DNA of 50,514 nucleotides. It comes from a virus (Duplodnaviria; Heunggongvirae; Uroviricota; Caudoviricetes). The notes beneath the pieces are model-generated. The model did no database searches. It saw nothing but the letters and a program-made list of their open reading frames with translations, and was not told where the DNA came from. Of the stretch, positions 16,860-18,205 are shown in pieces. The stretch lies in the IMG/VR virus record IMGVR_UViG_2534681773_000022. One strand, written 5' to 3'. The first letter of the stretch is position 1. Every line of letters begins with the position of its first letter. A program made the translations under genes and the position numbers.

Positions 16860-17909
16860 ATGCTTAATACTGTAAAAATATCCAGTTGTGAGTTAATCAA
16901 CGCCGACTGCCTGGAATTTATCCGGTCGTTACCCGAAAATTCTGTTGACCTGATAGTCACGGACCCGCCGTACTTTAAAGTGAAGCCTGAGGGCTGGGAT
17001 AACCAGTGGAAGGGCGACGATGATTACCTGAAGTGGCTGGACCAGTGTCTGGCGCAGTTCTGGCGGGTGCTGAAACCTGCCGGAAGTCTTTACCTGTTCT
17101 GTGGTCATCGCCTGGCATCTGATATCGAAATCATGATGCGTGAACGCTTCAGTGTGCTGAACCATATTATCTGGGCGAAGCCGTCCGGACGCTGGAACGG
17201 ATGCAACAAGGAAAGCCTGCGGGCGTATTTCCCCGCCACAGAGCGCATTCTGTTCGCGGAACATTATCAGGGGCCGTATCGTCCGAAAGATGCCGGGTAT
17301 GCGGCGAAGGGCAGTGCACTGAAACAGCATGTGATGGCCCCGCTGATTTCTTACTTTCGTGATGCGCGCGCGGCCCTGGGGATAACGGCAAAACAGATTG
17401 CAGATGCCACAGGAAAGAAAAACATGGTGTCGCACTGGTTCAGTGCCAGTCAGTGGCAGCTACCGAACGAAAGCGATTATCTGAAATTACAGTCGCTGTT
17501 TGCCCGGGTGGCAGAAGAGAAACATCAGCGCGGTGAACTGGAAAAGCCCCACCACCAGCTGGTGGATACGTATACGTCACTGAACCGGCAGTATGTGGAG
17601 CTGCAGAGTGAATATAAGCATCTGCGGCGGTATTTTGGTGTGACGGCGCAGGTGCCGTACACGGATGTGTGGACACATAAACCGGTGCAGTTCTATCCCG
17701 GGAAACATCCGTGCGAAAAACCGGCAGAAATGCTGCAGCAGATAATCAGCGCAAGCAGTCGTCCGGGTGACCTGGTTGCAGATTTTTTTATGGGCTCAGG
17801 TTCAACGGTAAAAGCGGCACTGGCGCTCGGGCGTCGTGCGATTGGCGTTGAGCTGGAGACCGGACGTTTTGAGCAGACAGTCAGGGAAGTTCAGGATTTA
17901 ATCGTTTGA
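16860..17909 (+). CDS. Phage DNA N6-adenine (or N4-cytosine) methyltransferase, DPPY-motif class
   Basis: 349-aa ORF with motif IV TDPPYF near the N-terminus and a C-terminal FxGxG-like AdoMet motif (DFFMGSGST). Confidence 0.8.
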   Translation: MLNTVKISSCELINADCLEFIRSLPENSVDLIVTDPPYFKVKPEGWDNQWKGDDDYLKWLDQCLAQFWRVLKPAGSLYLFCGHRLASDIEIMMRERFSVLNHIIWAKPSGRWNGCNKESLRAYFPATERILFAEHYQGPYRPKDAGYAAKGSALKQHVMAPLISYFRDARAALGITAKQIADATGKKNMVSHWFSASQWQLPNESDYLKLQSLFARVAEEKHQRGELEKPHHQLVDTYTSLNRQYVELQSEYKHLRRYFGVTAQVPYTDVWTHKPVQFYPGKHPCEKPAEMLQQIISASSRPGDLVADFFMGSGSTVKAALALGRRAIGVELETGRFEQTVREVQDLIV

Positions 17910-17958
17910 AACGGATGAGATTGCAGAATTAATTACGCACCATTATTATTCTGCTCCC

Positions 17959-18034
17959 GGCCCTTTAGCTCAGTGGTGAGAGCGAGCGACTCATAATCGC
18001 CAGGTCGCTGGTTCAAATCCAGCAAGGGCCACCA
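17959..18034 (+). tRNA. tRNA with CAU anticodon (Met or lysidine-modified Ile2; ileZ-like phage tRNA)
   Basis: 76 nt; 7-bp acceptor stem GGCCCTT/AAGGGCC, anticodon loop CUCAUAA, T-loop GGTTCAAATCC, discriminator A and CCA. Confidence 0.8.
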
Positions 18035-18043
18035 TATCACATA

Positions 18044-18120
18044 CCACCATTAGCTCATCGGGATAGAGCGCCAGCCTTCGAAGCTGGTTGCGCGGGGTTC
18101 GAGTTCTCGATGGCGGTCCA
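18044..18120 (+). tRNA. tRNA-Arg (anticodon UCG), argN-like phage tRNA
   Basis: 77 nt; acceptor stem with one mismatch, anticodon loop CUUCGAA, T-arm GGTTCGAGT, terminal CCA. Confidence 0.65.
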
Positions 18121-18134
18121 TTTATCGGTATTCT

Positions 18135-18205
18135 GCGTTGTTAGCTCAGCCGGACAGAGCAATTGCCTTCTAAGCAGCTGTGGTTGCACTCCTGTTGTTT
18201 CTGGT
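18135..18205 (+). pseudogene. Degenerate tRNA-Arg(UCU)-like remnant
   Basis: Intact D-arm (TAGCTCAGCCGGACAGAGC) and anticodon loop (CUUCUAA), but no pairing acceptor 3' strand and a degenerate T-arm. Confidence 0.35.

Follow-up and report, generated by a model that had tools for sequence, protein, structure and literature searches.

An argO remnant fused to a truncated DUF3927 gene in the tRNA cassette of a Stx-phage-like prophage without stx

The stretch of DNA analysed here, a Caudoviricetes sequence of 50,514 nucleotides (nt) held as IMG/VR virus record IMGVR_UViG_2534681773_000022 and hereafter called the window, contains the late-operon accessory region of a lambdoid prophage that resembles the phages carrying Shiga toxin (Stx) genes and is itself devoid of stx. 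In this region, a predicted DNA methyltransferase gene is followed by a transfer RNA (tRNA) cassette consisting of ileZ, argN and a third, tRNA-like element at 18135-18175 (all features lie on the + strand unless stated otherwise). The third element is a remnant of the tRNA-Arg(UCU) gene argO, that is, a non-functional 5′ fragment and not a tRNA. A single illegitimate deletion of approximately 0.65-1.25 kb within this M.EcoGII-clade methyltransferase/ileZ-argN-argO late region very probably explains why the fragment is fused to a truncated DUF3927 gene.

The argO remnant and its junction with DUF3927

The 41 nt of the third element correspond to argO positions 1-41 and comprise the 5′ strand of the acceptor stem, the whole D-arm, the 5′ strand of the anticodon stem, the anticodon loop CUUCUAA and three nt of the 3′ strand, while the 3′ 36 nt of argO, namely the rest of the anticodon stem, the variable loop, the T-arm, the 3′ strand of the acceptor stem and CCA, are missing. 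The fragment is identical to the common phage argO allele (41/41) and matches the argO of Stx phage 933W at 40 of 41 positions, the exception being position 37 (A here, G in 933W). It is separated from argN by a 14-nt spacer, as in relatives, and occupies the same slot as argO in 933W; a 41-nt match in that slot cannot be chance. A sequence-only reading of this DNA had described a tRNA-Arg(UCU)-like sequence that keeps its D-arm and anticodon loop and has lost acceptor-stem pairing and the T-arm, and the alignment bears this description out.

The fragment is not a tRNA because neither an acceptor stem nor a T-arm can form. The 3′ strand of the acceptor stem and CCA are absent, with DUF3927 coding sequence following position 41, and the T-arm is absent as well; the 3′ half of argO was found nowhere in the whole window at up to three mismatches, and a split tRNA with its 3′ half elsewhere in the window was rejected on this basis. 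As had been proposed beforehand, tRNA-finding tools were applied, and ARAGORN and Rfam call the first two elements and not the third: ARAGORN makes no call for it at the default, 95% or 80% thresholds and reports only two tRNAs in the 50.5-kb window, no match to Rfam RF00005 appears even at E <= 10, and no third tRNA is annotated by PGAP. The fragment is also without stable structure (fold z-score +0.26); minimum-free-energy folding gave no cloverleaves even for intact tRNA genes and was used only for this lack of structure. A T-loop-like stretch to the right of the junction (TGGTTGCACTCC, compared with TGGTTCGAATCC) was considered and set aside as a coincidence, as it lies inside the full-length DUF3927 coding sequence of locus L060, offset from the junction; locus L071 reads TGGCTGC at this stretch.

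The homology to argO in the 933W alignment stops abruptly after position 41, at the junction AAGCA|GCTGTGG (18175|18176), and from 18176 the sequence continues in frame with DUF3927 from codon 8 onward. The non-Stx phage vB_EcoS-640R1 has an identical junction and shares the sequence to its right. A scan of IMG/VR with the invariant 3′ end of ileZ yielded 120 related cassettes, some of which (including L060, L063, L066 and L071) contain an intact argO, its terminator, a TerB-family gene (PF05099) and a full-length DUF3927 gene in the same order and orientation. The full-length DUF3927 protein, a small membrane protein, has 54 amino acids (aa), and its gene and the TerB-like gene share an overlap of 4 nt. 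When the window is aligned with this intact arrangement, both flanks match and only one clean gap separates them, of about 0.65 kb against L063 or 1.25 kb against L066. Among the loci with full-length DUF3927, L060 and L071 come closest, with 94.7-95.3% identity over 169 nt. Their sequence at this point is ...CTG|GCTGTGGTTGC, against AAGCA|GCTGTGGTTGC in the window, which places the right breakpoint after DUF3927 codon 7. The junction is blunt, without microhomology.

The DUF3927 gene of the window (18176-18320) thus starts without its first seven codons, and the listed open reading frame (ORF) runs from a GTG at 18180 to the stop at 18320 and encodes 46 aa. On the 53-position profile PF13064, the window protein covers positions 11-50 (E 3.8e-18) and the full-length L063 protein positions 3-50; judging from the alignments, it is a family member by descent, truncated at its N terminus. 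The sequence further downstream is collinear with the intact relatives, and an extra segment at 18574-18830 (a 55-codon ORF, ORF55, plus a terminator) is also found in loci with intact argO, so that one deletion is enough to account for the structure. Such a deletion would have removed argO from position 42, its terminator, the cargo gene or genes and the first seven DUF3927 codons, and by the closest intact relatives the lost cargo would be the TerB-like gene. Because only parents of about 95% identity were recovered, the deleted content (TerB-like or other cargo) and the exact size are estimates. With the argO terminator lost, transcripts passing argN would run on to the terminator of a small RNA (sRNA) gene, STnc100, at 18551-18570.

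The junction allele is widespread. With a 111-nt query spanning the junction (at least 80% covered), it was found in 325 of 5,426 complete E. coli genomes, and since neither side of the junction alone reaches 80% of the query, these matches must span it. For comparison, intact argO plus its terminator (at least 80% covered) is present in 1,456 of the 5,426 genomes. The junction allele occurs beside at least three argN alleles and in backgrounds both with and without the methyltransferase, which fits one origin and subsequent spread by homologous recombination. The DUF3927 remnant is in frame in the window and is frameshifted by a 1-nt deletion in all six other junction loci examined (L002, L003, L020, L075, L077 and L098), two of which (L002 and L020) additionally have A20G in the argO fragment. 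The exact 46-aa protein is on record from Shigella dysenteriae (45 contigs), and the frameshifted 38-aa form on at least 1,000 contigs. The pattern of frameshifts and A20G looks like that of a scar, presumably neutral, which is decaying further.

Several points weigh against a simple deletion that left a neutral scar. The true parent was not recovered, and identity to the right flank reaches only about 95% in the best full-length relatives. Mosaicism is high in this region, and a two-step history, with replacement instead of simple deletion, may lie behind the junction. The DUF3927 remnant, open over 46 aa in the window, could still be translated. In addition, the codon-usage argument given below is correlative.

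Three other explanations were weighed. The junction could be an attachment-site scar, left when a mobile cassette (DUF3927, STnc100 and ORF55) integrated site-specifically in the anticodon loop or stem of argO and split the gene. Anticodon stem-loops of tRNA genes are classic integrase targets, other alleles of the cassette also break in the anticodon loop (the argN/argO chimeras of L022, L049 and L093), and a copy of the terminator that trails argO lies about 600 nt downstream, at 18760-18786. However, the displaced 3′ half of argO is missing from the window, no integrase or repeat flanks the block, and its right side is a 5′-truncated gene, which is not the product of a site-specific event. 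Moreover, the order and orientation are those found downstream of intact argO in relatives, the segment with ORF55 and the terminator also occurs in loci with intact argO, and the chimeras are explained by sequence identity between argN and argO. With a right flank that is a collinear, 5′-truncated gene and neither repeat nor recombinase, an integrase scar is very unlikely and was rejected. Partial, non-functional tRNA genes in or next to prophage DNA are familiar from prophage ends, as in the annotation of E. coli K-12, where they derive from site-specific integration and usually consist of a duplicated 3′ part at the border beside an intact copy. The window fragment shares with these only its partial and non-functional state: it is a 5′ part, lies inside a late operon, is ascribed to illegitimate deletion and is accompanied in the window by neither an intact copy nor a matching half.

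Alternatively, the 5′ fragment could have been retained because it is functional, being transcribed together with ileZ and argN and then freed by RNase P or RNase E to act as a tRNA-half-like small RNA, as a decoy for tRNA-Arg anticodon nucleases or arginyl-tRNA synthetase, or as a leader of the DUF3927 peptide. Terminator-like sites are absent between argN and 18551, which makes transcription of the fragment probable. Its D-arm and anticodon loop are still intact, the window has an open DUF3927 frame, and the allele is widespread. Nevertheless, a role of this kind is extremely unlikely, given that the DUF3927 remnant is frameshifted in every other junction locus examined and A20G is found in two of them, that the fragment has no stable fold, and that the GTG at 18180 is preceded by no usable Shine-Dalgarno spacing; hitch-hiking in a common prophage module accounts for the spread of the allele. 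Finally, the gradual decay in place proposed by the sequence-only reading, in which the third tRNA lost its acceptor pairing and T-arm by point mutations or small indels, has next to no probability left: the neighbouring argN does erode in this way and has two stem-weakening substitutions in the window, but the retained 41 nt are exactly the commonest argO allele, no residual argO similarity follows them, the sequence that does follow is 95% identical to DUF3927 coding sequence found elsewhere, and the boundary is a single point common to the 325 genomes, so that on the alignments to 933W and intact relatives this explanation is already refuted.

Among the sampled cassettes argO is mostly intact, with a nucleotide diversity of 0.023. 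Position 37, next to the anticodon, is A in 89 sampled copies and in the window fragment, versus G in three copies (L059, L079 and L088) and in 933W (L001, 3261). The three sampled G37 copies all adjoin an stx2 upstream region, and so do four A37 copies.

The tRNA cassette and its codon demand

The cassette of the window is that of 933W (GenBank AF125520), where ileZ-argN-argO lies in the same slot, preceded by the antiterminator gene Q and the late promoter and followed by the stx slot, with the same gene order and spacers; these statements on 933W rest on its GenBank annotation and on general background, and literature searches for ileZ, argN and argO returned unrelated word matches only. 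In the window, argO ends after position 41, the argO terminator is gone and no stx follows. The three-tRNA set of Stx-type phages, which the sequence-only reading had named for this position, is therefore recognizable here with a dead argO as its third member, and the suggested alignment to the Stx-phage genes gives 76/76, 73/77 and 40/41 identical positions to 933W for ileZ, argN and the argO fragment, respectively. The first two elements had been taken for intact tRNAs. Both are indeed called by ARAGORN and Rfam, but argN is not pristine.

The ileZ gene (17959-18034) is called by ARAGORN, scores 72.5 bits with the Rfam tRNA model and is identical to the 933W gene (76/76). It is 68/76 identical to ileX of E. 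coli K-12, with a compensatory change at the acceptor pair 6-67 (C6-G67 to U6-A67). An identical gene is named tRNA-Ile by PGAP. Both C4-G69 and C5-G68, which we take to be determinants for TilS, are present in the ileZ sequence. By its identity to ileX and its PGAP name, the tRNA(CAU) is of the Ile2 type, reading AUA after a predicted lysidine modification, rather than a tRNA-Met, and ileZ appears intact and is predicted to remain functional. In the sampled cassettes, ileZ is the best conserved of the three tRNAs, with a nucleotide diversity of 0.015 over its 5′ 44 nt, although the cassettes were sampled via the ileZ 3′ end and this conservation is partly built in.

An alternative set occurs behind the same ileZ in other IMG/VR loci (e.g. 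L004, L008, L045, L047 and L106), in which tRNA-Lys(UUU), tRNA-Thr(UGU) and tRNA-Gly(UCC) replace argN and argO. All four tRNAs of this alternative cassette are called by ARAGORN in 13 loci, and a few more loci have partial versions.

The argN gene (18044-18120) is called as tRNA-Arg(tcg) by ARAGORN. Its Rfam score of 44.9 bits is above the gathering score of 29 and about 10 bits lower than that of the 933W copy (54.8). Two of the four differences from 933W (73/77 identical) weaken stems: G3A produces an A3·C70 mismatch, and C61U turns the near-universal G53-C61 pair into G53·U61. The arginine identity nucleotides A20 and C35 are present, and the gene is probably still functional but weakened. 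Its maturation should be unaffected, because the 3′ trailer up to the argO fragment is unchanged. Across the sampled cassettes, argN has a nucleotide diversity of 0.070, with 34 alleles among 64 copies and many stem mismatches, which makes it the most eroded member of the cassette, as ileZ is the best conserved.

Two further forms of argN were seen. In a common variant, found in phage vB_EcoS-640R1 (L002, 4122-4205) and 26 further IMG/VR loci, the middle of the gene is replaced by unrelated sequence (…GGAAGAGCAGACGACACGATAACAGGG…), while the acceptor 5′ strand and the start of the D-arm are kept on one side, and the 3′ part of the T-arm and the acceptor 3′ strand on the other; neither ARAGORN nor the record annotation calls a tRNA there. 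In L022, L049 and L093, a chimeric gene downstream of ileZ consists of the 5′ half of argN joined to the 3′ half of argO inside the anticodon loop. The two halves meet at the GCCTTC / AAGC identity common to both genes, which represents a second, independent route of tRNA loss.

The tRNAs of the cassette would decode AUA, CGA/CGG and AGA/AGG, all of them rare codons in E. coli. Per 1000 codons, the late genes of the window contain 6.3 ATA, 4.2 AGA and 13.1 CGG, and stx2A of 933W contains 47 ATA, 18.8 AGA and 9.4 CGG. That a prophage devoid of stx has lost its AGA/AGG reader fits a relaxed selection on argO, as a correlation only. One speculative idea is that the codon demand of neighbouring cargo decides which cassette tRNAs are kept and which are lost, argO being dispensable where stx is absent.

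The M.EcoGII-clade methyltransferase

The methyltransferase ORF (16860-17909) encodes 349 aa and matches the Pfam family PF01555 (N6_N4_Mtase) with E 2.3e-44 and 152 bits, against a cut-off of 26.7. The assignment to DNA methyltransferases, first made from the motif TDPPYF, stands: VTDPPYF spans residues 33-39, of which 35-38 are DPPY (nt 16962-16973), and the FxGxG motif is present as FMGSG at residues 310-314 (nt 17787-17801). With motif IV (DPPY) at the N terminus and motif I (FxGxG) at the C terminus, the protein has the beta-class layout. Its beta-class homologues in PDB (RsrI, CcrM, MboIIA and DpnA) match both halves, aligning to residues 8-114 and 281-333 only, and the region between is therefore a central insert. 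The same layout is described for M.EcoGII in the SUPREM paper (PMC11551740), in which residues 1-134 and 260-349 make up a Rossmann domain and residues 160-237 a helix-turn-helix four-helix bundle.

The window protein is identical to M.EcoGII (PMC11551740, supplement file 5) at 331 of 350 positions with two gaps, or about 95%, a value that is probably slightly too low because the supplement text was machine-read with a few reading errors. The differences, at about 5% of residues, lie mostly in the central 120-280 region. The methyltransferase of phage 1720a-02, an enzyme that Murray et al. (2018, PMC5778455) describe as closely resembling M.EcoGII, is likewise 95% identical to the window protein. 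M.EcoGI and M.EcoGII, from E. coli O104:H4 prophages, are identical at 333 of 349 positions (PMC5778455), so the window protein is about as close to M.EcoGII as M.EcoGI is; all three have 349 aa, are prophage-encoded and have DPPY, central domain and FxGxG in this order. M.EcoGII methylates adenine whatever the surrounding sequence, and in the lysogen it is silent (PMC5778455). From this comparison, the window methyltransferase is placed in the M.EcoGII clade as a predicted beta-class N6-adenine enzyme, and by family the window allele should methylate adenine non-specifically. Methylation-sensitive restriction or methylome analysis had been suggested for its target, a question that the identity of about 95% to a non-specific enzyme appears largely to have answered already.

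In 65 of 118 sampled cassettes the methyltransferase gene immediately precedes ileZ, so its adjacency to the tRNAs is a common architecture. In contrast, 933W and phage P13374 have no methyltransferase between Q and the tRNAs. Two candidates for such a counterpart were tried and rejected: L0095 of 933W, which also has 349 aa, has no BLASTP similarity to the window protein, and M.EcoGI or M.EcoGII was supposed to lie next to the tRNAs of the O104:H4 phage P13374, where no methyltransferase is found.

From its position, the gene would be expressed only under antitermination by Q, i.e. after induction, and the pair of terminator-like sites that separates it from Q may be the structural reason for silence in the lysogen. 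Non-specific adenine methylation of phage DNA might then protect progeny DNA from restriction, a role suggested by the family. The database label is 'site-specific DNA-methyltransferase', whereas the characterised member of the M.EcoGII clade is non-specific; restriction-evasion or methylome interpretations of this prophage should assume non-specificity.

The late-operon setting and what the scar means

The antiterminator gene Q (15464-16285; Pfam PF03589 Antiterm, E 1e-49), which RefSeq names 'antitermination protein' in the near-identical locus L003, defines the late operon in which the methyltransferase and tRNA genes lie. A late-promoter-like site (16291-16318) with TTGATT, a 16-nt spacer and TGgTAAATT was read by eye directly after Q, the position of pR′ in 933W. 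A consensus promoter scan made no call at 16291-16318, and from its appearance and position the site is a probable late promoter. The terminator scan found a tR′-like hairpin at 16368-16383 (CCCGCCGCCTGGCGGG followed by TTTTTT), which would be the first obstacle to transcription from the late promoter into the methyltransferase gene, and a second terminator-like hairpin at 16696-16713, at the end of a small ORF (16512-16709) annotated as hypothetical in L003. Between the latter hairpin and the methyltransferase start, a perfect 12-bp hairpin without a T-run lies at 16737-16775 (GGCTGGTGGGTG…CACCCACCAGCC). Upstream of ileZ, TTGCAG, a 17-nt spacer and TATTAT (17921-17949) align to the 933W feature 'pT; putative tRNA promoter'. 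This pT-like site is a weak consensus match that was not called by the promoter scan, and it is regarded as a candidate promoter.

Downstream of the scar, STnc100 copy 1 (18386-18579; Rfam RF02076, 140.5 bits) includes the terminator at 18551-18570, the first terminator-like site on the + strand downstream of the tRNAs in the terminator scan. It belongs to a tandem array between the tRNA scar and an IraM-like gene, comprising two strong copies (140.5 and 132.8 bits; 18386-18579 and 18615-18790) and one degenerate copy (30 bits; 18855-19043). 933W has a single STnc100 copy, located between stxB and the esterase gene and next to AsxR. In a 2026 preprint, STnc100 is linked to the PasD sRNAs. Within this region, the terminator hairpin at 18760-18786 is 27/28 identical to the terminator behind intact argO in other phages and stands here behind the 55-codon ORF at 18583-18750, an example of module reshuffling. 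The IraM-family anti-adapter homologue (19069-19404, - strand; NF007393, E 4.7e-48) lies on the opposite strand within the late region and is ATA-rich, with six ATA in 111 codons. It is followed by a NanS-p-like sialate esterase gene (19650-21521) and then by lysis genes, as annotated in L003.

L003 is an E. coli locus 99.8% identical to the window, for which RefSeq/PGAP lists tRNA-Ile, tRNA-Arg and a 'DUF3927 family protein' and no third tRNA. In the 933W record, stxAB lies between argO and STnc100, and the corresponding slot of the window contains no toxin genes; the window is a Stx-phage-like prophage without toxin genes on this account. The neighbours seen here, DUF3927, STnc100, IraM and NanS-p, belong to the usual content of prophages of this kind.

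Nothing in the region is new in kind, since the cassette, the M.EcoGII clade and the neighbouring genes are all known, and the sole unannotated item is the 41-nt argO fragment, a deletion scar. Its significance beyond correct annotation is small: the fragment should be flagged as a pseudogene remnant, lest it be mistaken for a tRNA or an attachment site. The scar is ordinary and is carried by hundreds of sequenced E. coli genomes. The survey of cassettes shows the slot behind the phage tRNAs, which is the stx slot in Stx phages, to be a recombination-prone junction, and this provides a background for the movement of stx cassettes.

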